Shown: positions 2,158-23,227, counted from the first letter of the stretch. The stretch is 23,227 bases of DNA from a virus (IMGVR_UViG_2565956617_000009), one strand, 5' to 3'. The notes: generated from the letters alone by a model not told the origin. A program made the numbers and translations.

Positions 2158-2505
2158 TCAACTCACAGGGATGGTTAACGAAAGTGGCTGGCCGGTGTCG
2201 TTGTGCTGACCGGTTAACGTGACCGTCATTCGCCCGTCAAAACTGCGCGCCGTGGTGACGGATGACAGGGTTACGCGGGGTTCCCATTTCAGCACCGCCA
2301 TGTAACAGGCGACCTTAATCTGCAACTCAAGCGCGGGGGTCTGCGGCTGGTCAATCATTGATGCCAGCAACGAGCCGTAATCACGACGCATCACCCGTGA
2401 GCCGACCGGTGTGCGCAGGATATCGCCGATACTCTGGCTGATATGCTCAAGGTCAGTGACAGTCAGGCCATCACTGCGATTCATCCCTAGATAACGCGCT
2501 GTCAT
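2158..2505 (-). CDS. W: Baseplate wedge protein gpW
   Basis: 115-aa ORF, same length as P2 gpW, between V and J. Confidence 0.9.
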   Translation of the reverse strand: MTARYLGMNRSDGLTVTDLEHISQSIGDILRTPVGSRVMRRDYGSLLASMIDQPQTPALELQIKVACYMAVLKWEPRVTLSSVTTARSFDGRMTVTLTGQHNDTGQPLSLTIPVS

Positions 2506-3137
2506 AGAGGACTCCCGGTTTTGCCGCCGCTGTCGCCGGGGTGTTTATGGGTATGCAGTACCTTCCCGTTTGATGAAAGTTCACCGCCGGTGTGTTCAAT
2601 GTTGCCGCGCATCGTCCCGCCCTTCTGCACTTCCAGCGTGCCGGTAATCAGCTTGTTGGTGCAGACCACCTCCGGTGTGTCCAGGGTGACGCGGGTTGAT
2701 GCTTTCACCATGACCACCGGCACCGTGGCAGTAACAGAATCAGAAGCCGTCACGCTGGCCGTTTTAATTCCGCTTACCGTGAGTGCACTGGTTTCAGGTT
2801 CATACTCAATCACCGCCCCGTCAGGGAAACGGATATGCAGGGCATCCGCCGACACCGACGGCGCGGGGTTATCGCCGGAATAAATCCCCGGCAGAACGAA
2901 CGCAGTGTCGAGTTCACCGCCCACGGCCAGAATCAGCACCTGTTCCCCCACGGAAGGTGCCCACCATGTGCGCGAACGCCCGGCGCGATGGGTCAGCCAC
3001 TGAAGCCAGTCGGTGCACATGCCGCCGGTCTGCACACGGCAGCGACCGGCGTTAAGGTCGGTTTCGACGACAAGGCCGGTACGAATCATGTTGCGCAGTG
3101 CGCGCGCGAGTTCCTGAATATTTGCGAGAGTGTTCAT
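2502..3137 (-). CDS. V: Baseplate spike/hub protein gpV
   Basis: ORF 2502..3173; start trimmed to the internal ATG (rc of 3135..3137, MNTLANIQ...) to give 211 aa, the P2 gpV length. Overlaps W by 4 nt. Confidence 0.88.
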   Translation of the reverse strand: MNTLANIQELARALRNMIRTGLVVETDLNAGRCRVQTGGMCTDWLQWLTHRAGRSRTWWAPSVGEQVLILAVGGELDTAFVLPGIYSGDNPAPSVSADALHIRFPDGAVIEYEPETSALTVSGIKTASVTASDSVTATVPVVMVKASTRVTLDTPEVVCTNKLITGTLEVQKGGTMRGNIEHTGGELSSNGKVLHTHKHPGDSGGKTGSPL

Positions 3138-3214
3138 GACGGGAAGGATGCCGCCGGACGATACCAGCAGCAATCATGGAGGACTCTGTCAGCCGTGACA
3201 CAACATAATAAATA

Positions 3215-3970
3215 TTAGTTGTAGCACTTCTCTATAATCTTCATACACTCCTCATGAGCTAAATCATGGCTGTCAAATTCTTTATTAAAAAAGAAGAAAA
3301 ACGCCTTCTTAACCTGAGGCATTTCAATAAAAATAAATTCATCAACCTTATGAAAGAAATGAAAACTCTTGTTTGATGTTTCAAAAACCATCAAAGAATT
3401 ATGTTTTTTATCCTTCCATTTCGACATCAGATTGCGTCGCGATTTTCTTATAATCCTGAAGACATCCTCCGGTGTCGTATCGACATTCCCCCAAAACATT
3501 GCAACCGGGAAGTTTGCAAGGAAAGGGATATAATCCCCCCCTTTATACCTGAGAAAGCGGGTCCGTAAATCCATTAATTGCAACTTAAAGCCCATGTATT
3601 GCAACCACCATATGATGCAATCATATTCATAATCTGTTAACTCATCGCCCCTCTTTTCCGTAAGAAATTTCTTCAGGTTATACTCAAACGCTCCCAGCAA
3701 ATCAGAATTGCACACTCTGCATGCTGGTACAGTGGCTTTGATGTAATGAGTTGACTGATTATTCTTTTTATTAATTAAAAGTTTTTCAGCATTTGACTCA
3801 AAGGCCCACTGAGGAATAATGTGCTCACGAGTAATATCGTCAGAACTCCCGCATAACACACATACATCAGCATTATGGTCAGCAATAATACAATCCATAA
3901 CTTTCTTTTGAGAATGCTTTACTCTTTTTCTCAAAATGGAAAATTTTTTATCCACAAACACCCATCTCAT
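3215..3970 (-). CDS. AT-rich accessory ORF (251 aa) with an HNH-type endonuclease motif, in the S-V slot (P2 orf30 position)
   Basis: Translation contains CVLCG...EHIIPQW...N...CRVCN, a CxxC...(D/E)H...N...CxxC arrangement typical of HNH nucleases. The DNA is visibly AT-rich compared with the flanking tail genes. Start ATG overlaps the S stop codon; same strand as the late operon. Confidence 0.6.
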   Translation of the reverse strand: MRWVFVDKKFSILRKRVKHSQKKVMDCIIADHNADVCVLCGSSDDITREHIIPQWAFESNAEKLLINKKNNQSTHYIKATVPACRVCNSDLLGAFEYNLKKFLTEKRGDELTDYEYDCIIWWLQYMGFKLQLMDLRTRFLRYKGGDYIPFLANFPVAMFWGNVDTTPEDVFRIIRKSRRNLMSKWKDKKHNSLMVFETSNKSFHFFHKVDEFIFIEMPQVKKAFFFFFNKEFDSHDLAHEECMKIIEKCYN

Positions 3971-4425
3971 ATAACATCTTTCGATAGAATCACTAATAAC
4001 TCCTTTTCTATCAATTGTATAGATTCCTTGTCAAAACCTAATAACTCACGAACAGGATATTCCACCACAGCACTATTACGCCCCGGCTTATCCCTAAGCC
4101 CTAATTGATGTACTCTCGCAATTCGTTGTACTCCGCTGGCAAACTCCACCACAGCCGCACTCTCGCTACCTGTTGCTTTCATAAATCGGTTTGTGCGTAA
4201 TTTCGCAAACATTTCCCGCTTTATCCGGCCTTTCTTATTTCGCACTGGCTGGTTTTTTCTCGGTATATACGGCGTACCATCCGGGGCTTTTTGTAATTTA
4301 ATTCGCTGCTGCTGGCGCTGGCGCAGTTTCTTCGCAATATCTACCGCCAGTCGCCGACGCCCTGACGGTGACAGCGATTCAATAAGTCCGGTCAGCCGGT
4401 CTTCAAAACGCTTAAACTCATTCAT
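3967..4425 (-). CDS. S: Tail completion protein gpS
   Basis: 152-aa ORF, close to P2 gpS (about 150 aa), immediately downstream of R. Confidence 0.85.
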   Translation of the reverse strand: MNEFKRFEDRLTGLIESLSPSGRRRLAVDIAKKLRQRQQQRIKLQKAPDGTPYIPRKNQPVRNKKGRIKREMFAKLRTNRFMKATGSESAAVVEFASGVQRIARVHQLGLRDKPGRNSAVVEYPVRELLGFDKESIQLIEKELLVILSKDVI

Positions 4426-4885
4426 CCCACTTGCTCACCAGTTCGCCATTGATATAAAGCTCCACCGGGCGGGTGACCGGCTCCGGCGGCGGAGGTTCCG
4501 GGATATTCTTCACATGCAGTGCGCCGTCCACCTCACTGACCAGCGTGCGCTCGGTCAGCATCAGGCTGATGCTGATATCAAAGCTGCTGTCATTGTTGAT
4601 GTCCGCATAAAACGTGAAGCCCTTTTTCTGGCCTTCGTCGGTGGTCATGATGTCGGGCTGATTTTCCCGCAGCCACGCCAGCACCGGCACGATGAGCAGG
4701 TCAAAATCACCGGTAAAGTCGGTCACAATCACATTGAGCGTGTAACGCTTTTCGAATGACAGCGACGTCGCCAGTGTGGAGGCAATACTCCCGTTATCCA
4801 CGAATATCCGCAGCATCTCGGGGCTGGTTTTCAGCACCGTGACGGCATCAGTCAGTGCCCTGCGCAGGCTGTCGGGTTTGAGCAT
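4418..4885 (-). CDS. R: Tail completion protein gpR
   Basis: 155-aa ORF, same length as P2 gpR, following the lysis cassette. Confidence 0.9.
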   Translation of the reverse strand: MLKPDSLRRALTDAVTVLKTSPEMLRIFVDNGSIASTLATSLSFEKRYTLNVIVTDFTGDFDLLIVPVLAWLRENQPDIMTTDEGQKKGFTFYADINNDSSFDISISLMLTERTLVSEVDGALHVKNIPEPPPPEPVTRPVELYINGELVSKWDE

Positions 4886-13341: not shown

Positions 13342-13454
13342 CGCCCGCTTTATGGGTCGTTTTTAATGCAGTTGCATTGATAGCATAAGGGCGCGCCATT
13401 ACTGGCACACCTTTTCATCATCCTAGATAAAATTCTAATGCAATAGCAGGCAAC

Positions 13455-15467
13455 TTAATGCACTTGTTGCATTGTCTCTTGAGCTTTCTCACCCTCTGGA
13501 ATTTTTATCGTATTACTATTAATTAAAGCATGAATTCGCTTATCGTTAGGCGAACGTTCAACTAGATGATCTAAGAATTCTTGCCATTGACGTTTAGCTT
13601 CAGCAAGCAGATCACCCCAAGTAAGAGTTTCAAGTCCATCCTCTTTAAGCTTTCTAACCTTTTTTAAAAATGCAGGATTTTTCTTGGCTATTTTATCAGC
13701 AACCAAATAACCAGTAGCAGTATTAAATCTTGATCCCGTAGAGCTTTCAAGATGGCCACGAAATGTGTCTACATATGTCTCAAACCTAACTAAATGATCT
13801 AAATCAATCATTAACCCTGGACGCATAAACTCAAGGATTAGCAAATGCTCACCACTCGCTAAAACCAAATCAACTCGTCCATTAAAATCTTCATCCTTAT
13901 CAAGGCCTGAATCTTTAGCTGCTTCAGCAGCCAAATCTCCGACATTTCGCTCCTTAGCGAAGGTTTCCCACTTTGGTGATATTAACCATGGGTTATTCGC
14001 AATATAATCTCGCACTGCATTTTCTAATTCACGATTTTTTATTCGTGACTCAAGTCCTATTATTGTGTCCAGCTTTGCCTTTACAGATTCAGCTGTATGC
14101 AATGCTTGTATTGTATTAGCCTCGATAAGCATAGATAGCAATTTATCGCCATCCATATCGGGTACTTCTGCAACTTGCCTGATTAACTCCTTTAACCGAC
14201 CTCCTTCCCATGCAGTAAGAACAGAATTGGCTAACTCTTTGAATTGATTTGCATTTATTTGATTAATGCTAGCCAACTTCTTAAGGGCTGTCATAATGGT
14301 TTTTTTCTCGCTTGGAGCGAGTTTTTCAATTCTTGAACTAAAGTCAGAAACTTTGTCTTCTATCAGTTTCGTTTTTTCTTCAGCCCTCCGGTCTTTCCAT
14401 ATTTTTAATAAATTGCGAATACGAGCCTTCCCCCACTCTTCAAGAGTGGCTAAATGATGATGCCCCCAATTCAACCGTTGTCGCTCAGTTGAAATAACAT
14501 CCTCATCAAATTCATCAAGGTAGTCAGCTAATACTGCACCCGTCATATATTCTGGCCCATTCTGGCTAGGTAACCCTCCTGCCAAATTAAACATAAATGG
14601 TCTTTGGGCTAATTTCCCATGAGAAAATATTGAAATACCTTGTAATTCCTCTTCCTTTATAGTTTCTTTTAAGAAGAAAACTCTCCATTTTATTTGATGG
14701 TCACCGACCATTTCTGTTCCCCATCCATCTTTATCAATCTCAGTCAATCCTTTTGGTTTTTCATCTTGTTTGTAGTCCTTAGGAAAGGACATTTCTGACT
14801 TGCTAAGAAAGTCTTCTGTAGGGATTAACTTCCCATCAATGCTCACATAAAAATCTGCTGCGGCAGCATTTACAGAGAAACGGCGAGCCATAGATGTTGC
14901 AAAAAAATCAGCTGAAATCAGGCGCTGAATTTTCAAACAAGTTAACTTAATTGTTGTACCATGTGCTTTTTTTAATTCATTGTTAGGTTCAACTCTCTCA
15001 ATCACATCGATGGTAAGTTTCGATGTATTGATATAATCATCATTTGATGAATCACGAATTTTATCAATATCTAGTACAAATGATGTTTTCTCGCCAGTAT
15101 CCTTACTAATAGTTGTTACTGTTATAACTGATGCAATACCAAAACCAGCAAATTTTCCAATTCCTTTTCTTCCCATCAGTGGACGTTTTAAATCACGGGA
15201 AAGCGTTTTTGCATTATTTTTACGCTTATCATACCCCACTGTCAGAAACTTATTCTGACATTCCTCTAGGGTCATTCCGATACCATTATCTTGAATCGTA
15301 ATTGAGAAATCGTCATGCGTAGGAAGAGTAATTTTCACCTCAGTTGCATCAGCATCCCAGGAGTTAGAAACCATTTCAGCAATAGCAGCTGTTGGACTTT
15401 GATACATTTGTATGCCCAAATGATCAATTATTCTTCCGTGGAAACTTAAAAATAAAGATTTTTCCAT
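13455..15467 (-). CDS. GHKL-superfamily (Bergerat-fold, MORC/MutL/Hsp90-like HATPase) ATPase, 670 aa, with an uncharacterised C-terminal region; candidate effector of a methyltransferase-linked system
   Basis: Motifs read from the translation: N-box EMVSNSWDA (nt 15351..15377), G1 box DNGIGM (15273..15290), G2 box GRKGIGKFAGFG (15138..15173), then GTTIKL. ATG at rc 15465..15467 lies 4 nt after the methyltransferase stop, with AGGA about 9 nt upstream. Strongly AT-rich. Confidence 0.85.
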   Translation of the reverse strand: MEKSLFLSFHGRIIDHLGIQMYQSPTAAIAEMVSNSWDADATEVKITLPTHDDFSITIQDNGIGMTLEECQNKFLTVGYDKRKNNAKTLSRDLKRPLMGRKGIGKFAGFGIASVITVTTISKDTGEKTSFVLDIDKIRDSSNDDYINTSKLTIDVIERVEPNNELKKAHGTTIKLTCLKIQRLISADFFATSMARRFSVNAAAADFYVSIDGKLIPTEDFLSKSEMSFPKDYKQDEKPKGLTEIDKDGWGTEMVGDHQIKWRVFFLKETIKEEELQGISIFSHGKLAQRPFMFNLAGGLPSQNGPEYMTGAVLADYLDEFDEDVISTERQRLNWGHHHLATLEEWGKARIRNLLKIWKDRRAEEKTKLIEDKVSDFSSRIEKLAPSEKKTIMTALKKLASINQINANQFKELANSVLTAWEGGRLKELIRQVAEVPDMDGDKLLSMLIEANTIQALHTAESVKAKLDTIIGLESRIKNRELENAVRDYIANNPWLISPKWETFAKERNVGDLAAEAAKDSGLDKDEDFNGRVDLVLASGEHLLILEFMRPGLMIDLDHLVRFETYVDTFRGHLESSTGSRFNTATGYLVADKIAKKNPAFLKKVRKLKEDGLETLTWGDLLAEAKRQWQEFLDHLVERSPNDKRIHALINSNTIKIPEGEKAQETMQQVH

Positions 15468-15471
15468 TTGC

Positions 15472-16500
15472 TTATCCTAATTCAATAAGATGTTTTTTTA
15501 TTACCTCTGCATGACGCTTGATAAATTCTGGAGGTAACGCATTACCAATCATAAGAGCTGCTCTATCTTTACCATACTTGATTGGAAAGTAATAATCCTT
15601 CGGAAAAGTTTGCAATAGAGCGGCCTCCCGCAAAGTGATCGCTCTATCTTGTACAGGATGAAGGAATCGTCCTTTAGATGGATTAGTGCAACCACTTGTT
15701 ATTGTTGGGGATACATCATCCCATTTCATGCGCCCATAAACATCCCTAAATCCATTTGGATATTTTTTATGGCACGGTAGCCAGTATTCATATGGTAAGT
15801 CAGAACGACTACCACCATCTTTTGGCACTAGCTTTATTATATTCATGACTTTTTCAGAGCGATTTTCTTTTATATTATGCAAAAAGTCATCACTATATTG
15901 AGGTAATGGTAAATCTCCAATTACATCCTTAACAGTTACTTTTTTGCTATTTTTTTTCGCTCTTGGTAAATATCCTAATCTTGAAGCCAACATTACCATA
16001 CGCCGCCGTCTCTGTGGCACTCCATAGTTAGAAGCATCTTCAATCGCAACAGAGGTTGAATCAATGAAATACCCTAACTGTTTCAATTCATCGCAAAAAA
16101 TTTTCATGCGATAATCTTTAGCTAATGCGGGCACATTTTCCAACATTACTACTTTAGGAAGAAAGTATTTAACAAATTCCAAAAACGAAAATATTAAATC
16201 ATTCCGTTCATCGGTAACCGAAGAATATTTATTCCTCGTTCTTAAGCTTGAAAAACCCTGACATGGAGGACATCCTGCAAGCAAGTCAAGTTGCCCTTGC
16301 TGGAGACCAAGTTCAATCATGATTTTTTTGGGGGACAACTCCCTTATGTCTCCCGTATACAATGATACATCAGGATGATTCTGCATATAGGTTTCAGAAA
16401 CAATAGGCTCCTTTTCGACTGCTGATATAACGTCAAAGCCAGCCATCTTAAGACCAACTGTCAGGCCACCTGCGCCGCAGAAGAGATCTATCGCTTTCAT
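15472..16500 (-). CDS. DNA (cytosine-5)-methyltransferase, 342 aa
   Basis: Canonical C5-MTase motifs: motif I FCGAGG (16465..16482), catalytic PCQ in GCPPCQGFS (Cys codon 16261..16263), motif VI ENV (16132..16140), motif VIII QRRRR, C-terminal GNALPP. AAGGA lies just upstream of the ATG at rc 16498..16500. AT-rich. Confidence 0.9.
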   Translation of the reverse strand: MKAIDLFCGAGGLTVGLKMAGFDVISAVEKEPIVSETYMQNHPDVSLYTGDIRELSPKKIMIELGLQQGQLDLLAGCPPCQGFSSLRTRNKYSSVTDERNDLIFSFLEFVKYFLPKVVMLENVPALAKDYRMKIFCDELKQLGYFIDSTSVAIEDASNYGVPQRRRRMVMLASRLGYLPRAKKNSKKVTVKDVIGDLPLPQYSDDFLHNIKENRSEKVMNIIKLVPKDGGSRSDLPYEYWLPCHKKYPNGFRDVYGRMKWDDVSPTITSGCTNPSKGRFLHPVQDRAITLREAALLQTFPKDYYFPIKYGKDRAALMIGNALPPEFIKRHAEVIKKHLIELG

Positions 16501-16551
16501 AAAATCCTTAACAAACCTAAACCAATATATAACATTGAAAAATATTGGATG

Positions 16552-16580
16552 AGTATAAATGACTCTCCATGTCGCAGCAA
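16552..16580 (-). promoter_or_regulatory. Candidate sigma70-type promoter for the methyltransferase-ATPase operon
   Basis: On the minus strand TTGCTG (-35, plus coords 16575..16580), a 17-nt spacer, then TATACT (-10, 16552..16557), about 50 nt upstream of the methyltransferase ATG in an AT-rich leader. Confidence 0.3.
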
Positions 16581-16767
16581 AAGTATATTTGTGAAAGACA
16601 GCTCAGATAGGAGCAGAGCACCAAACATATCGGATTGTCGATGCATGAACGAGGAATCACCATTTCTCTAATACATACTCTAACTCTGAAGAGTAAGTTC
16701 TTGTGTATGTTCATTTCACTTCCAGAGCCAATGCTACTCAACCTCATCAGCCCTGAAAGCAAAAGAT

Positions 16768-16992
16768 TCACGGCTGACGGGATTCTCGACCATCTGCGGA
16801 TGACGATGCAACTCTATACTGACCGATATCGTTAAGCCGCCCGTAATTATCCCGGACTATTTCGGCACACCCGACCAGCTCGTCAGGCGTCAGATTTTCG
16901 TTGACCATAATCTGCTGTAGACGGTGAACAATAGCCATCAGCTTGATATTTTTAGTGTTATGTTGCGGTATCTCGCCTGGTATTCTGTGCAT
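16768..16992 (-). CDS. Small hypothetical protein (74 aa), translationally coupled to the upstream ORF
   Basis: ATG at rc 16990..16992 overlaps the stop of the preceding ORF (TAATG). No recognisable motif. Confidence 0.4.
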   Translation of the reverse strand: MHRIPGEIPQHNTKNIKLMAIVHRLQQIMVNENLTPDELVGCAEIVRDNYGRLNDIGQYRVASSSADGRESRQP

Positions 16993-17444
16993 TATCCAAG
17001 CCACCCGTTTTGCTTTGCACGCTCAATCTGTTCATCTGAATAGCTCCACATCCCATCCGCAGCAACCACTGCCCCGCCAGACAGCCCTGTCACTGACTCA
17101 TACATAACAGCAAGACCGAGCTGATGCATAATTTCATGATTAATTCTGAATACCAGACCACGCTCACCAAGCTCTTTCCAGTTCACAATCTCATATGCGC
17201 CTGTATTAAGCAGCTCAATACTTAGCAAGACATAATCTTCCAGCCAGTCTGACAGGTCAGTAACATCTGTTATCCGGGCTTCAACCTTTCGCCCCGTATA
17301 CACACCCTGCACCCATTCATGCAAAATCAACGTGTCCCCGCGCTCATAATTACGGTCATTTTTCCGAAACTCTGCACGTTTCTTTCCTTCCAGCACAAGG
17401 TCGAAATATTTTGCGTGCAGCTTTACCTCGTGAATTTTTGCCAT
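16992..17444 (-). CDS. ASCH/DUF3850-like small protein downstream of A (P2 orf91 position), with a C-terminal extension
   Basis: Start MAKIHEVKLHAKYFDLVLEGKKRAEFRKNDRNYERGDTLILHEW resembles the ASCH-like/DUF3850 pattern as I recall it. ATG at rc 17442..17444, 19 nt upstream of the A stop. About 150 aa, longer than I would expect for this family. Confidence 0.55.
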   Translation of the reverse strand: MAKIHEVKLHAKYFDLVLEGKKRAEFRKNDRNYERGDTLILHEWVQGVYTGRKVEARITDVTDLSDWLEDYVLLSIELLNTGAYEIVNWKELGERGLVFRINHEIMHQLGLAVMYESVTGLSGGAVVAADGMWSYSDEQIERAKQNGWLG

Positions 17445-19729
17445 GATGTCCACTCCATTACTGTTGAGAATCCCGGCCACTCATCAGTGACCGGATACGT
17501 GAATTTTTTCCCGTCATAATTTACGGTCGCGCCACGCGCCAGCGCCTCAAGTTCCCATCGCTGAGGCCAGATGCCGTTCTGAGCAAGGTCAACACGGATA
17601 CGGGTAATTTGCATACGCTCCGACCGGGTCAGCCTGGCCGATGGCGCTATTTCATTCGGTTTTAACGGGCTTCCGTTTCTTTGCTGACGGTTTGGTGTTC
17701 TCAGGCCGTGTTTTAATGCGCCCCTGAGCGCCCTCACGACCTCCGGGTCATTCCATTCGATAACACCGTCATCAACCAGATTAAGCACGGCTGCGGCGTG
17801 CTCAGAAGGTGTGGGAGCCGGTAACGAAGTATCACCACCGGTGAGCTTTCCACAGTTATTGACAGGACTCCGAGGCGCGGCGATGCCGCTTTTTAAAGTC
17901 AAAGGCTCAACGACCGGCACTTTCGGCACAATGCGCCAGTCCGTCGTTCTGGTGATATGAATATGACGCGCGCCGAGATGCGGCGCGTAAATGCCGACCA
18001 CTCTCTCGACTTCTTCCTCGTACTCGTTAACGTCATCCGACGGGCTACGGGCAACCCTGACAGTCTGACAATCGCGCGGAACATTTGCCCCACCCTGCGC
18101 GCTGATATACAACGCAAAATCACCACTGTCTGCGGCGGCGCGTGCAGCCTCGACGCGCTCGTCAAACTCATCAGCAATGCTGACGCCGCGCGGCAATTTG
18201 CGTAGTTCACGGTAAGCCCCCATTGTCGGCAGACCAACCGTTTTAAATTGCGGGATGCGCCACGTTGACGCCCATGCAGTAACAGCCGCGGCAGTATCTT
18301 TCAGAGGTCTGCCGGTATCGTTATCGAGCTGACCATCCAGTGCATAGCCGTCGATGTTTTTTGAGATGTATTTCGCGATATACCCCGCAGCACCGCCCCG
18401 GTTAAGGTGTTTTGCCTGAAAACGGTTTCGCGCGGCTCCTCTTTCGTCGCCATCCTCTTTGAGCGCATAGCGACGCATGATTTCGATAATCTGGTTACGC
18501 TGGCGCGGATTACAAAAAAGCATCATATGCCAGTGCGGCGTTCCGTCGTGGTGTGGCTCGACGACACGCAAACCGTAGACCTGTAAATCATTATCCTTGA
18601 ATGCCGTGCGCATCAGGCTCCAGATACGGCAGAGATAACGCTGCGCATCCTTTGGATTAAATGCCTCATCGTTCCAGCCGTGATTTAGCTGGACGGTTTT
18701 ACTTTCGCCTTTTCTGACCTGACGTGTCGGGTGATACTTTGACGGCGCGGTCAGCGTGATAAACATCCCCACATCACCCTCTGCTGCGGCGTAACGCTCA
18801 ATACCGGCAATGGTGTTCATCAGCTCCATCCGGCGAATTTCAGGATTAGAAATACTGCCCATCACCTTACTGATAAGGTCGATGCGCTCGCCGGTTTCCC
18901 TGTTTTCAAGGTCACACGATTTAAGAAATTCCAGATTTGCCTGGCGGCGCGCACGCACATCACGAATGGCATGTTTACTGGCATAAGGAGAACGGTCTTT
19001 ATTGACCTCCCCGACAGCTATCAGTAACGCCTCATGCCAGCGCATACGCTGGCCTTTAAGCTGATGAGTCCACCACTCATCGTTAAACAGGCGGGCAATG
19101 GCAGAATATGCCTGCCTCGTGGTCATCTGTCCTTTACGGTATTTTTTCCAGTAGAGCGGGGAAATATTGAAAGCACGTGCAGCGCCAGCAACATGACCAT
19201 AGAGGTGAGCCTGCGCCTCATCCGTAAACAGCGATTCTTTTTCGCCATGTGCATCAACCCAGGCATCGCAGAGTTCCTCATACATCATGAAAAGCTGCGA
19301 TGAGATACGGGCAGCAAACTTTTTCAGCTCCTTGTCATTCATTCCCGGCAGGCGCGCATAGTGGTCACGCTCTGCCAGAAACAGTAACGACGCGTCGGTG
19401 TTCATTTCATGGCGCTGATTCACACGCTCAATGCGCGGCCATAAACGACGCTGAAAAGTGGATGTGAGGAAATAAAACCCGTGCACCGGGCTTTTATTGC
19501 GCCGGATGTAGTCATAGCGTGAAGTAAACAGCGAGCGCAAAAAGTAAGGCAGGCGGTTAATCGTGGATAAAACACCTTGCACCTGACGCATCTCGTCACG
19601 TGTAAGGGGTCTTTCGCGCCCGACAGCCTCGCGTGGCGCGTTCCATGCATAAGCACCGGTAAACGCCTTACCGGTGCCTGCAGCAAATGCTGACGGAGGG
19701 ACAAAACGCCCGGAGGCTTTAACGACCAT
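17423..19729 (-). CDS. A: Replication initiator gpA (rolling-circle HUH endonuclease)
   Basis: Near-identical over long stretches to P2 gpA as I recall it. HUH motif in GTPHWHMMLF and paired-tyrosine motif GAAGYIAKYISK. Start set to the ATG at rc 19727..19729 (MVVKASGRF...), about 768 aa; the ORF track extends to 19771. Confidence 0.9.
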   Translation of the reverse strand: MVVKASGRFVPPSAFAAGTGKAFTGAYAWNAPREAVGRERPLTRDEMRQVQGVLSTINRLPYFLRSLFTSRYDYIRRNKSPVHGFYFLTSTFQRRLWPRIERVNQRHEMNTDASLLFLAERDHYARLPGMNDKELKKFAARISSQLFMMYEELCDAWVDAHGEKESLFTDEAQAHLYGHVAGAARAFNISPLYWKKYRKGQMTTRQAYSAIARLFNDEWWTHQLKGQRMRWHEALLIAVGEVNKDRSPYASKHAIRDVRARRQANLEFLKSCDLENRETGERIDLISKVMGSISNPEIRRMELMNTIAGIERYAAAEGDVGMFITLTAPSKYHPTRQVRKGESKTVQLNHGWNDEAFNPKDAQRYLCRIWSLMRTAFKDNDLQVYGLRVVEPHHDGTPHWHMMLFCNPRQRNQIIEIMRRYALKEDGDERGAARNRFQAKHLNRGGAAGYIAKYISKNIDGYALDGQLDNDTGRPLKDTAAAVTAWASTWRIPQFKTVGLPTMGAYRELRKLPRGVSIADEFDERVEAARAAADSGDFALYISAQGGANVPRDCQTVRVARSPSDDVNEYEEEVERVVGIYAPHLGARHIHITRTTDWRIVPKVPVVEPLTLKSGIAAPRSPVNNCGKLTGGDTSLPAPTPSEHAAAVLNLVDDGVIEWNDPEVVRALRGALKHGLRTPNRQQRNGSPLKPNEIAPSARLTRSERMQITRIRVDLAQNGIWPQRWELEALARGATVNYDGKKFTYPVTDEWPGFSTVMEWTSWQKFTR

Positions 19730-19994: not shown

Positions 19995-20215
19995 GCCGTT
20001 CTCCGGTAATGTTTGTTTTTTGCTTCAAAGACTGACTGACAGGAAACACAACGCGTGGCTGACGGATAAGCCGCACGACGGGCAGCAGGTATTGGCGCGT
20101 CACACTCTTCGCAAACCAGCGCAGAAGCACCGCAATGTTTTACCCTTGCCGCGTTAATCTGACGCTCCAGTAATTCAGCCTGTTGTTCCTGAATAAAATC
20201 TACGTTGTCCGGCAT
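19991..20215 (-). CDS. TraR/DksA-family C4 zinc-finger protein (P2 orf82 position)
   Basis: 74-aa ORF with CxxC...17 residues...CxxC (CEECDAPIPAARRAAYPSATRCVSCQ), typical of DksA/TraR-type zinc fingers. Confidence 0.7.
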   Translation of the reverse strand: MPDNVDFIQEQQAELLERQINAARVKHCGASALVCEECDAPIPAARRAAYPSATRCVSCQSVFEAKNKHYRRTA

Positions 20216-20520
20216 TACCAGCTCCTTTTGTCGTTAAGTTTTTTAAATTCATCAGCGTAATAGCTGGCGATTTCTGTCGTTAATTTTGTCAGTTCATCCA
20301 CGGAGGAGATTTTCTTGTGAAATACAGCGTGTTTAACAAGTAAATTGACCACATCAGACAGGAGATTTAATTCGTTCTGATAAATCGCGATAACAGATTC
20401 AGTTATTTCGCGTTTTTCTTTATCAAGACCAAGTTGAATAAGAGATAAATCGCCATTTTTCATAACGGCGATTTTTAAGGCGTTATTCAGTAATACAACT
20501 GAACGAGAACAGGACATCAA
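20215..20520 (-). CDS. Early-operon small protein (P2 orf81 position)
   Basis: 101-aa ORF, tightly packed with its neighbours in the early operon. Confidence 0.55.
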
Positions 20521-20741
20521 AGCACCTCCCCGCGAGACAATCCGATATTGTGAAATTTTTCCGACTCCTGACTGAGCAGCTCGACTATCTCCACGCGGGA
20601 TAACTCCGCCTTTGTGATGTGGCGAATCATGGCGTCAAGATGAGAAGAAAAGCGCGTCGCAGCATCGGCCTGTGCTTCGGTTCTGGCCTGTTGCAGCAGT
20701 AATGCGTATTTACCGCACTGATTTTCAGAAACTGTATGCAT
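20517..20741 (-). CDS. Early-operon small protein (P2 orf80 position)
   Basis: 74-aa ORF overlapping the next ORF by 4 nt, downstream of B. Confidence 0.55.
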
Positions 20742-20804
20742 GACTTTCTCCAGGCAAAAAGAAACCCCGCACGATTAAGTGCGTTAAAAACTCTGGTTAA
20801 TTAC

Positions 20805-21305
20805 TTAATGCAGATATTGCTCTGGTTTTACCGACGTCAGAATTGTCGGTGCATACTCAAACAGGCTGAATAATTCACGTAATGCACGGAATAAAGCATC
20901 ACGCCAGTAACATGATTCTTCATTAATTCGCCAGTATGGCTGGTTGAATTCTTTTTCAGTCAATCCGGCATGCATAAATAAAGTACGACGCTGACTGACT
21001 GTTAAAAAACTAATATATGCATACTCACTTGCGCCAACCTGACGGCGTTTTGAGAATGCCCCACGCAATTCATCAATTGCACAAACCAGCCGTTCACGTT
21101 CGACGTCGTTCATTTCTTCAAAACGCATCGTTGCGTGACGCTGTTTTAACTGCGCATGGAAGCAAACCGTTAGCCGTTCGCGTTCCATCATCTGATTATA
21201 ATAATCACATGTATCCTGCCAGCGAGGGACGGCAAGATGCTTGCCAATTATCCGGCGCATAGCTGCTGGCTGTTTTTCAACGAGATTGAGCGTCATCACT
21301 GTCAT
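20805..21305 (-). CDS. B: Replication protein gpB
   Basis: 166-aa ORF, same length as P2 gpB, at the P2 B position in the early operon. Confidence 0.85.
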   Translation of the reverse strand: MTVMTLNLVEKQPAAMRRIIGKHLAVPRWQDTCDYYNQMMERERLTVCFHAQLKQRHATMRFEEMNDVERERLVCAIDELRGAFSKRRQVGASEYAYISFLTVSQRRTLFMHAGLTEKEFNQPYWRINEESCYWRDALFRALRELFSLFEYAPTILTSVKPEQYLH

Positions 21306-21472
21306 TTCCAGACCCTCCGGCTTTTCAGAAAGGTCAGAGCCTTTTTTAACGGACTCTGTTTTTTGGTGCGGATAATGATTCCCTTGCGTCCCTTCCCGTG
21401 GGTGATGGTGAAGTCAATCGCCCTGGGGCTTTCGTTACGCAATAACTGAGCAATACAACGCGGCTCATTCAT
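21302..21472 (-). CDS. Early-operon small protein (P2 orf78 position)
   Basis: ORF 21302..21499 trimmed to the ATG at rc 21470..21472, 2 nt after the cox stop; the longer form would overlap cox by 25 nt. About 56 aa, basic. Confidence 0.45.
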   Translation of the reverse strand: MNEPRCIAQLLRNESPRAIDFTITHGKGRKGIIIRTKKQSPLKKALTFLKSRRVWK

Positions 21473-21474
21473 AA

Positions 21475-21762
21475 TCACAACCCCATCCACAAAAGCCATG
21501 CATCACGCTGTTCAACCGGTCGGTTATAAAACGCCTCACGTACAGCGCGATTAAACTCAGGAATGAAAACCCATTTTTCACCGGCACGAGCCTTCGGTTT
21601 GCAAGGATCACGCAATTCAATAATTGGTAATTTATTTGCCTTCACCATTTCACTGACGGCTGTCTTTGGCTTCCCTAATAAATCAGCAAATTTATCCACA
21701 TGAACCGCATCAAGCGGATACTGAATCACATAATTTTCAGCGTCCATATATGGTACCCTCAT
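21475..21762 (-). CDS. cox: Cox (excisionase / lytic-switch regulator)
   Basis: 95-aa ORF, first gene of the early operon, divergent from C; about the size of P2 Cox (91 aa), with matching KLPVI-like and GEKWV-like segments. Confidence 0.8.
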   Translation of the reverse strand: MRVPYMDAENYVIQYPLDAVHVDKFADLLGKPKTAVSEMVKANKLPIIELRDPCKPKARAGEKWVFIPEFNRAVREAFYNRPVEQRDAWLLWMGL

Positions 21763-21883
21763 AGGATCCAGCCCTTTCTAAACCACTCAAAACCGTTTAG
21801 ACGCTGGTTTATTCTCAAATCAATGGAACCTATATAGGTTCCAGTTTTGAGGGAATTTAGTCCCTATATAGGCACCATGTCAA
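21763..21883. promoter_or_regulatory. Immunity switch region between cox and C, with candidate operators
   Basis: 18-bp perfect palindrome GGAACCTATATAGGTTCC (21825..21842) and a second copy of the core CCTATATAGG (21863..21872) 34 bp away. The TATATA cores could double as -10 elements. Confidence 0.6.
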
Positions 21884-22177
21884 ATGAAATTAAGCGAGAA
21901 GATTAAGGCCTTGCGTGAGGCTGAAGGGCTAAGCCAATCAAAATTCTGTGAAATCATAGAGTTACCGCTAAGCACACTTAAAAAATATGAAGGAGGAAAC
22001 TTTGAACCCGGTGGCACAGCTTTGCTAAAAATCACTATGCATCCCACATTCCAAAAATATGCTCTATGGCTTATGACAGATAAAACCGCGCCGGACGCAG
22101 GACAAATCGCACCGGCTCTCGCGCACATTGGGCCAGAGTCAACAGAGTCCAACCACTCCGCGAAAAGGATTGGCTAA
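21884..22177 (+). CDS. C: Immunity repressor C
   Basis: 97-aa ORF similar to P2 C (99 aa) as I recall it: helix-turn-helix region at the N-terminus and a shared C-terminal segment GQIAPALAH. Confidence 0.85.
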   Translation: MKLSEKIKALREAEGLSQSKFCEIIELPLSTLKKYEGGNFEPGGTALLKITMHPTFQKYALWLMTDKTAPDAGQIAPALAHIGPESTESNHSAKRIG

Positions 22178-22246
22178 CTCTATATAAAGATTACATTTTC
22201 ACCATTTGCTACCAAGATGGTGAATACAGCGCCGGAGGGCTTTCTT

Positions 22247-23227
22247 ATGGCAATTAAGAAGCTCGATGATGGTCGCTATGAAGTGGACATTAGACCTCGC
22301 GGTCGCGACGGAAAACGCATCCGCAGGAAATTCGAAAGAAAAGCTGAAGCACTAGCATTTGAGCGATACACAATCGCCAATGCCAGTCAGAAAGAATGGG
22401 GAGGCCAGCGAGCAGACCGCCGGACTTTGAGTGAGTTGCTGGACATCTGGTGGAAATATCACGGGCAAAACCACGAGCATGGAACAAAAGAGTTTAATCA
22501 TCTACTCAAAACCATCAGCGGCATAGGTGATATACCAGTGAGCAGGATGAGCAAAAGGGCTTTGATGGATTATCGTTCCATGCGACTACGTGATGGTATC
22601 AGTGCCGCAACGATAAACCGTGACATGTACCGATTATCCGGCATGTTCACAAAATTAATTCAATTGGATGAATTTTCCGGGCAACACCCAATTCACGGAC
22701 TGCCGCCACTGGCGGAGGCCAACCCTGAAATGACGTTCCTGGAAAAAGCAGAAATCGAAAAACTGTTAAATGTTTTGGCTGGTGATGACTTACTTGTCGC
22801 GCTTTTATGTCTGAGCACTGGAGGAAGATGGACGGAAGTTGCCACGCTAAAACCAGCACAGATTACAAATTGCAGGGTTACCTTCCTGAAAACCAAAAAC
22901 GGTAAAAAGCGAACCGTGCCGATTTCTGAGGAACTGGAGAAAAAAGTTAAAGAGGAGGCCAGCGCCAAATTATTCAAAGTTGATTATGAGAAATTTTGCG
23001 GGATTTTACGCAGAGTGAAACCTGATATACCACCCAATCAGGCAACCCACATCCTGCGGCATACATTCGCAAGCCATTTCATGATGAATGGGGGCAATAT
23101 AATCGCACTGCAACAGATTCTGGGACATGCGAGCATTCAGCAGACGATGGCCTATGCGCACCTTGCGCCTGACTATCTGCAAAATGCCGTCGCTCTGAAT
23201 CCACTAAAAGGCGGAGTGACGTTATAA
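22247..23227 (+). CDS. int: Tyrosine integrase
   Basis: ORF 22217..23227 trimmed to ATG 22247 (MAIKKLDDGRYEVDIRP..., the P2 Int N-terminus as I recall it), with GGAGGG 8 nt upstream. C-terminal catalytic region HxLRHTFASHF...ILGH...YAH. Stop is at the window end. Confidence 0.9.
   Translation: MAIKKLDDGRYEVDIRPRGRDGKRIRRKFERKAEALAFERYTIANASQKEWGGQRADRRTLSELLDIWWKYHGQNHEHGTKEFNHLLKTISGIGDIPVSRMSKRALMDYRSMRLRDGISAATINRDMYRLSGMFTKLIQLDEFSGQHPIHGLPPLAEANPEMTFLEKAEIEKLLNVLAGDDLLVALLCLSTGGRWTEVATLKPAQITNCRVTFLKTKNGKKRTVPISEELEKKVKEEASAKLFKVDYEKFCGILRRVKPDIPPNQATHILRHTFASHFMMNGGNIIALQQILGHASIQQTMAYAHLAPDYLQNAVALNPLKGGVTL

Follow-up and report, generated by a model that had tools for sequence, protein, structure and literature searches.

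What kind of gene fills the interval between the tail genes S and V in this phage, and what might it do there? The window, by which we mean the whole stretch of 23,227 nucleotides that was analysed, is a P2-like Escherichia coli prophage with 100% identity to ECC-1470 over the stretch tested. On its minus strand the genes follow in the order R (4418..4885), S (3967..4425), an HNH-motif open reading frame (3215..3970), V (2502..3137) and W, with strong Pfam matches for the flanking genes. The original prediction of an AT-rich, HNH-motif reading frame between S and V was confirmed: the frame encodes 251 aa from an ATG at 3970, closes with TAA at 3215-3217 and has a GC content of 0.364; V has 0.599 and S has 0.46, S overall being itself lower in GC than its neighbours. 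The AT-rich tract reaches into S, where it covers the last ~21 codons (3967-4031).

The reading frame matches PHROG 10503, a group of unknown function, with an E-value of 5e-181. Compared with its counterpart in phage R18C the dN/dS is 0.165 (0.18-0.22 for S, V and R), and in comparisons with lineages other than R18C the synonymous sites are saturated. It is a real gene under purifying selection, and an accessory gene of one sublineage of P2-like phages. Its start had been described as coupled to the stop codon of S, and this coupling is real. The ATG at 3970 and the S stop codon do share the letters ATGA, and the placement behind S is kept in 50 phage contigs (see below); the start that is conserved in the family, MDKKF..., is however a GTG at 3955 in the window, which would yield a product of 246 aa. 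All homologues outside the E. coli clade begin at MDKKF..., five codons after the window ATG, and in phage R18C this start is an ATG, not a GTG. The GTG lies 11 nt past the S stop, and both candidate starts are thus at most 11 nt away from it.

The proposed arrangement CxxC...EHIIP...N...CxxCN was found in the predicted N-terminal HNH (His-Me finger) domain at residues 25-105 (3656..3898, minus strand), where it reads C37-V-L-C40, E49-H50-I-I-P53-Q-W55, N70 and C84-R-V-C87-N88. These residues are invariant among 18 aligned homologues, and 120 of the 125 cluster representatives of at least 200 aa have the complete motif. The spacing from His to Cys is 34-35 residues in 136 of 147 sequences, and across 40 diverse N-terminal domains the C, C, E, H, P, W, C, C and N positions are all invariant. 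Such a pattern, with fixed spacing across the family, reflects family conservation and not chance.

A comparison with Pfam gave a divided outcome: HNH_5 matches the N-terminal domains of 39 out of 40 relatives at E <=0.01 (best 4.3e-9), but the full-length window protein stays below the threshold (E 0.0084, 16.5 bits against a cutoff of 27.5 bits). Its excised 80-aa N-terminal segment improves to E 4.7e-4, which is still below the cutoff. The full-family profile gave no meaningful match to PDB sequences. After deliberate excision of a family-specific 24-aa insert, and with E-values that are borderline, all seven matches were HNH nucleases (the best five at E 0.002-0.007), including 4h9d (E 0.004) and three 'HNH nuclease domain' chains (E 0.002); the alignments cover both CxxC pairs, the His and the Asn. 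With hhalign, the alignment of the N-terminal profile to E. coli McrA was limited to the first CxxCG.

The AF2 model of the window protein (pLDDT 79, pTM 0.82) has two strands (46-50 and 80-84) followed by a helix (85-105), with E49-H50 closing the first strand, and this modelled strand-strand-helix layout fits the one expected for HNH; whole-model fold searches, on the other hand, retrieved no HNH structure, which we attribute to the small size of the HNH core inside a 251-aa model. Overall, the invariance across the family, the HNH_5 matches of the relatives and the exclusively HNH matches in the PDB after insert removal argue for the predicted HNH core, and the product very probably belongs to the HNH family. 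Judged by the motif, C37/C40/C84/C87 are putative zinc knuckle pairs, E49-H50 a putative catalytic dyad and N88, at the start of the helix, a putative metal ligand.

The family-specific insert lies between the putatively catalytic His and the second CxxC (residues 56-79; 3734..3805, minus strand). Its 24 residues hold the invariant N70 and Q72, the pLDDT drops below 50 at residues 61-73, and it breaks the PDB and Pfam alignments into two pieces. Behind the HNH core a remainder without recognisable motifs had been noted, and indeed no family or fold could be recognised in the last ~150 residues. In the AF2 model this C-terminal domain (residues 106-251; 3218..3655, minus strand) is predicted to comprise long helices, then a Phe-rich sheet of four strands and then a terminal helix, and W122, K129, F205 and F227 are invariant even among distant members. 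Searches of Pfam, NCBIfam and PADLOC as well as a structure search gave no match for it. Since no second catalytic signature is found in the domain, we treat it as a module that may serve either regulation and activation or the binding and choice of a target.

Where the gene sits in the late region differs from what had been assumed. V, the baseplate spike gene (2502..3137, minus strand; Phage_base_V and Phage_spike), is the first gene of the next late unit, and its ATG at 3137 is conserved with P2 and with an empty-site prophage. A TGT-N10-ACA dyad (TGTGTCACGGCTGACA; 3187..3202, minus strand) is located 65 nt upstream of this ATG, a distance that is equal in the window, in the annotated pV activator site of P2 and in the empty-site allele. 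From its sequence and position we presume that the dyad is the Ogr/activator site of the pV late promoter. It marks the right-hand limit of the cargo, and the HNH gene stops 12 nt short of it. Hence the original placement inside the late tail operon has to be revised: the gene forms the 3' end of the R-S unit (the 'O' unit of P2), which it closes before the pV dyad, and is not part of an operon interior. No terminator-like hairpins were seen on either side of the gene, and promoter and terminator scans around it in three phages gave match counts within shuffled expectation. Between the pV dyad and the V start codon there is a hairpin, GCTGCTGG-TATCGT-CCGGCGGC (window 3150-3171), that is kept as a perfect 7-bp stem in the empty-site allele; it might belong to the leader or be what is left of a terminator.

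P2 itself has between S and V, in this order, the O-operon terminator, Orf30 on the opposite strand and the pV activator site. A divergent orf30 homologue, one of the identities suggested for the gene, was rejected: BLASTP against P2 Orf30 gives an E-value of 2.8, Orf30 is encoded on the opposite strand behind a terminator, and no domain is shared (no Pfam domain was found in P2 Orf30).

In most E. coli P2-like prophages the S-V junction is empty and measures 66 bp. Other loci carry various cargo antisense to S and V: a 483-aa 'PCRF domain' protein with a weak LmuA match of 1e-5 (L010:413-1864), a 414-aa P-loop NTPase (L093:1547-2791), a 216-aa ORF downstream of the HNH gene in Klebsiella (L007:6926-7576) and, in a distant P2-like phage, a 365-aa member of a larger HNH branch (L158:5983-7080). 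A further S-V variable-site locus is L001:940-1725. Between S and V, P2-like phages have a variable site with several states, and the window HNH gene is the sole S-V cargo seen that is co-oriented with S and abuts it. In a subset of the phages with the HNH gene (L132-L135 and L007), an additional 0.9-1.1 kb separates it from V, which indicates that the swappable site is downstream of the HNH gene and that the gene itself stays with S. The main papers on P2 hotspots describe neither the S-V slot nor the HNH gene. S-V has been recognised as a moron site (PMC6823313), and the remaining P2 moron sites hold exclusion or defence genes (PMC9122126, PMC13586616); neaT sits in another moron site, not in S-V.

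In the window, the tail-completion gene S (3967..4425, minus strand; PF05069) is a mosaic allele: it is 56-57% identical to S of P2, with the first 27 residues identical. HNH-bearing phages of three genera have a distinctive S C-terminus in common, and the last ~21 S codons (3967-4031) are strictly linked to the HNH gene and co-vary with the cargo. A full-length HNH gene is present in 77 of 5426 complete E. coli genomes, and the S 3' end (~125 bp) is full length in the same number of genomes (77); any S/V match is found in 1576 genomes, mostly with the empty 66-bp junction. At the locus with the 'PCRF domain' protein the S allele is common with the window only down to ~4032.

In IMG/VR we found 50 P2-like contigs with the order R-S-HNH-V-W and an HNH identity of 43-100%. 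In all 50 the HNH gene is on the same strand as S and 0-54 nt after it, and V is within 100 nt of the HNH gene in 45. Identities of the HNH gene correlate with those of S, V, R and W (Spearman 0.70-0.79 over the 50 contigs). Strict co-divergence with the tail genes was nevertheless rejected, as the tracking is only coarse and falls to a Spearman value of 0.05-0.37 among the 33 contigs below 90% identity. Such coarse tracking suggests that the HNH gene is long-resident with some mosaic exchange. The GC content of the gene is 0.32-0.38 in the 50 contigs, against 0.51-0.59 for the rest of each locus. A recent horizontal import, as the term compositional island in the original prediction implied, was rejected: all P2-like carriers keep the low GC although synonymous divergence is saturated, the divergence of the gene roughly follows that of the tail genes, and it is also below the GC of its flanks in all 68 loci tested outside P2-like phages. 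The HNH gene keeps its low GC as a lasting trait, and this composition is no sign of recent arrival.

Beyond P2-like phages the family is widespread. An exhaustive profile search yielded 882 cluster representatives at E <1e-3, ranging from Enterobacterales to Bacteroidota and CPR bacteria, and 34 of these are full-length relatives of about 245-270 aa. For a larger branch (300-360 aa) most alignments of that search cover no more than the N-terminal ~110 residues, two of its members (P0144 and P0167) align up to about residue 230, and by eye the branch has a similar strand pattern near the C-terminus. Across phyla the complete domain layout is kept, C-terminal domain included. Out of 80 loci from species-representative genomes, the three closest are P2-like, and two of these come from records with names that suggest contamination. 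In these two, L012 (a Sporobacter termitidis MAG) and L013 (Chryseobacterium sp. 18061), we observed P2-like contigs of the enterobacterial type with R-S-HNH-V-W and 64-77% identity to the window, which are probably due to contamination or misbinning.

The other 77 loci lie outside P2 phages (in Vibrio, Shewanella, Halomonas, Acinetobacter, many Bacteroidota, Desulfobulbaceae, Gracilibacteria and others) and contain solitary genes without P2 tail genes; a conserved partner gene was searched for in these 77 loci and none was found. In 68 of the 68 loci tested the GC of the HNH gene is below that of its surroundings, with a mean difference of 0.079, and for most non-P2 relatives the upstream gap is at least 50 nt. 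Ordinary genes make up most of the neighbours, alongside a few mobile-element and defence genes. One relative is near a CBASS operon with BrnTA and integrases, one is near a Gp49/HigB-like toxin gene, and another is beside a gene for DUF4238, a validated anti-T7 gene (PMC9122126). Among 148 neighbours from 37 loci PADLOC recognised a few, with type IV REase, Mokosh, ThsA and PDC candidates. The window protein has no system match in PADLOC v2 (best PDC-M01B, E 0.022), and among its relatives only P0167 reaches 1e-5, also to PDC-M01B. The gene occurs in one of 50,697 phage records (R18C); a tblastn search of these records with the N-terminal domain was significant for R18C only, with cyanophage HNH genes at E 2.

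What, then, might the gene do? The reading we favour, which falls somewhat short of an even chance, is that it encodes a conflict or exclusion nuclease made together with the late O-operon. The product would be a zinc-stabilised HNH nuclease (His-Me finger, H-N-N type) in which C37/C40/C84/C87 hold a structural zinc, H50 with E49 acts as general base and N88 at the start of the helix binds the catalytic metal, while the C-terminal domain of ~150 residues would control activation or target choice. As the last cistron of R-S, the gene would be co-transcribed with the late O-operon, which we infer from the lack of a terminator, the position 0-54 nt after S and the stop codon 12 nt before the pV dyad. 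Synthesis would then occur late in lytic growth or upon the switch-on of late genes, and would not be constitutive in the lysogen. The nuclease may cut competing or foreign DNA, in the manner of superinfection exclusion or abortive infection. A role in conflict is suggested by the relatives, which are solitary, partner-less and low in GC, reside in variable regions and in some cases lie beside defence genes, as well as by the observation that a second branch of the superfamily has independently settled in the S-V slot (the 365-aa protein of L158).

Several observations speak against a conflict role. PADLOC v2 returns no system match, the window protein is under the HNH_5 threshold, the fold searches gave no HNH structure, and the enrichment of defence genes near relatives is modest and comes without a background comparison, most neighbours being ordinary. 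Prophage defence genes of the classical kind are active in the lysogen and usually have a promoter of their own; no convincing promoter precedes the HNH gene, and late-only expression is a poor fit for the protection of a lysogen. Moreover, the defence cargo of P2 hotspots shows a fast turnover (PMC13586616), unlike the HNH gene, which is in place down to 43% identity. It might be argued that the gene is a classical abortive-infection or defence moron expressed in the lysogen, like old, tin and fun, with a promoter in the AT-rich 3' end of S. The slot is a known moron slot (PMC6823313), the AT-rich tract does run into S, a TTGACA is present at 4027-4032 L005 and L007 have weak matches to a promoter at the corresponding position, and homologues have defence-type neighbours. 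We nonetheless consider it unlikely: the promoter matches (9/12) are no more frequent than in shuffled sequence, no usable -10 follows the TTGACA in the window, the gene is oriented and spaced like a member of an operon (in contrast to all other S-V cargo seen), and again PADLOC shows no match. The presence of an HNH core between two conserved genes, on the same strand and abutting the upstream gene, would also suit a free-standing homing endonuclease, with its target at the S-V junction, or at the 3' end of S, in P2-like genomes without the gene. It would be synthesized late in a mixed infection, for which late expression is suitable, and copied by recombinational repair along with the adjacent S codons. 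The presence/absence polymorphism (77 of 5426 E. coli genomes, with 1576 having an S/V match and mostly the empty 66-bp junction) and the strict linkage to the last ~21 S codons (77 genomes in both counts) agree with this, but Pfam shows no NUMOD, IENR1, HTH or HNH_3 at E up to 1, and the gene is present in just one of 50,697 phage records. In addition, 77 of the 80 genome relatives are solitary chromosomal genes with differing flanks in many phyla and thus not at one cognate site, the architecture including the C-terminal domain is conserved across phyla, and the gene diverges in coarse parallel with the tail genes down to 43% under purifying selection. The S allele of the common empty-site prophages is just 56% identical, which would make it a poor repair substrate. 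All in all, we rate homing as distinctly unlikely.

A function in the lytic cycle itself appears equally improbable. Such a nuclease would process DNA, either by trimming or debranching before packaging as T4 endonuclease VII does, or by degrading host or unpackaged DNA at the end; the CxxC...(D/E)H...CxxCN layout is, we presume, reminiscent of endonuclease VII. In favour are the coupling to the late structural operon in 50 out of 50 phage contigs, the long retention with purifying selection at rates like those of tail genes, and the fact that the lytic isolate R18C has kept the gene (PMC6823313). The gene is absent, though, from most P2-like phages, P2 itself and ~95% of E. coli P2-like prophages, and must therefore be dispensable; Pfam Endonuclease_7 gives no match at E up to 1, the relatives are mostly solitary non-phage genes, and the sister-branch member in the S-V slot is on the opposite strand, a poor fit for a late-operon function. 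The same sub-threshold HNH_5 score, the 24-aa insert that interrupts the core at low model confidence and the fold search without an HNH structure could alternatively be taken to mean that the protein is a non-catalytic zinc-finger protein with retained HNH-like residues, e.g. a DNA-binding regulator or an assembly factor. This is highly doubtful, as 40 diverse members all have the catalytic His, the Glu before it and the Asn that follows the second CxxC, and the complete motif is present in 120 of 125 representatives, a pattern as expected from selection on catalysis. Just as doubtful is the more specific proposal that the gene is a counter-measure of a helper phage, a late-operon nuclease directed against a P4-like satellite or a competitor. 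It would be made only upon the switch-on of P2 late genes, including the transactivation of a silent prophage by a P4-like element, and would also be triggered by late co-infection; unpackaged DNA of the satellite or competitor would be destroyed, or the hijacked cell aborted. If true, this would be the first anti-satellite or late-phase exclusion nuclease in a P2-like phage, and it would found a widespread family of single-gene HNH immunity proteins that carry a new sensor domain.

The window has further low-GC regions. A second AT-rich island (13400-17500, GC 0.37-0.39), in the A-Q ('old/tin') hotspot, contains on the minus strand a C5 cytosine DNA methylase (15472..16500; PF00145, 1e-58) and a 670-aa GHKL-ATPase protein (13455..15467; PADLOC type II REase models, 3e-53), which look like a restriction-modification pair and are adjoined by an ASCH/DUF3850 protein (16992..17480, minus strand). 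A lower-GC stretch is also seen at 20000-22600 (GC 0.42-0.48), and a 166-aa ORF at 20805..21305 (minus strand) has no Pfam match.

A large fraction of enterobacterial genomes harbours P2-like prophages, and several new immunity systems have already come from the variable sites of these phages; the HNH gene marks S-V, a less-studied variable site. Its family is large, is listed in no defence catalogue and carries a C-terminal domain without a known fold. The gene is also unlike typical hotspot cargo: it is bound to the late operon, has kept its place down to an identity of 43% and is AT-rich throughout. Should the product turn out to be an exclusion, anti-satellite or homing nuclease, it would provide a single-gene system open to testing and account for a feature that recurs in this phage group, whereas a plain dispensable nuclease would be an ordinary finding.

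With respect to known systems, the gene has been reported before: ORF16 of R18C (MN016939) is the same gene, 96% identical and in the same position and orientation, and was described as a moron between S and V of unknown function for which PSI-BLAST found no motif (PMC6823313). New relative to that report are the assignment to HNH, the wide range of the family, the constant position in the late operon and the persistently low GC. The closest comparison by domain is with HNH_5 (PF14279) nucleases such as Gmet_0936 (PDB 4h9d), which have CxxC ... (D/E)H..P ... CxxCN in common with the family, 4h9d aligning over both half-motifs; the family differs by its conserved 24-residue insert and its unique C-terminal domain of ~150 aa. 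The HNH_5 model is also used to annotate HNH partners of AAA15/21 ATPases (PMC11464382). In contrast to Septu PtuB-type HNH proteins, the gene is flanked by S and V and has no ATPase partner (none is conserved in the 77 loci), and the PtuB model in PADLOC matches neither the window protein nor its relatives.

P2 Orf30 is comparable in being a non-essential, AT-rich gene of the S-V interval, but it is encoded on the other strand, past the terminator of the O-operon, and shows no sequence similarity to the HNH gene. The free-standing HNH homing endonucleases of T-even phages (Mob, Seg-like) are likewise optional genes between conserved genes of the same strand, with linked flank polymorphism; the HNH gene lacks their DNA-binding modules, its relatives are mostly solitary chromosomal genes, and its residence is long. 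Finally, old, tin and fun of P2 and DUF4238 (PMC9122126) are, like the HNH gene, single low-GC accessory genes at fixed variable sites. Those genes are expressed in the lysogen and swapped quickly, whereas the HNH gene is wired to a late unit and stable in its place.
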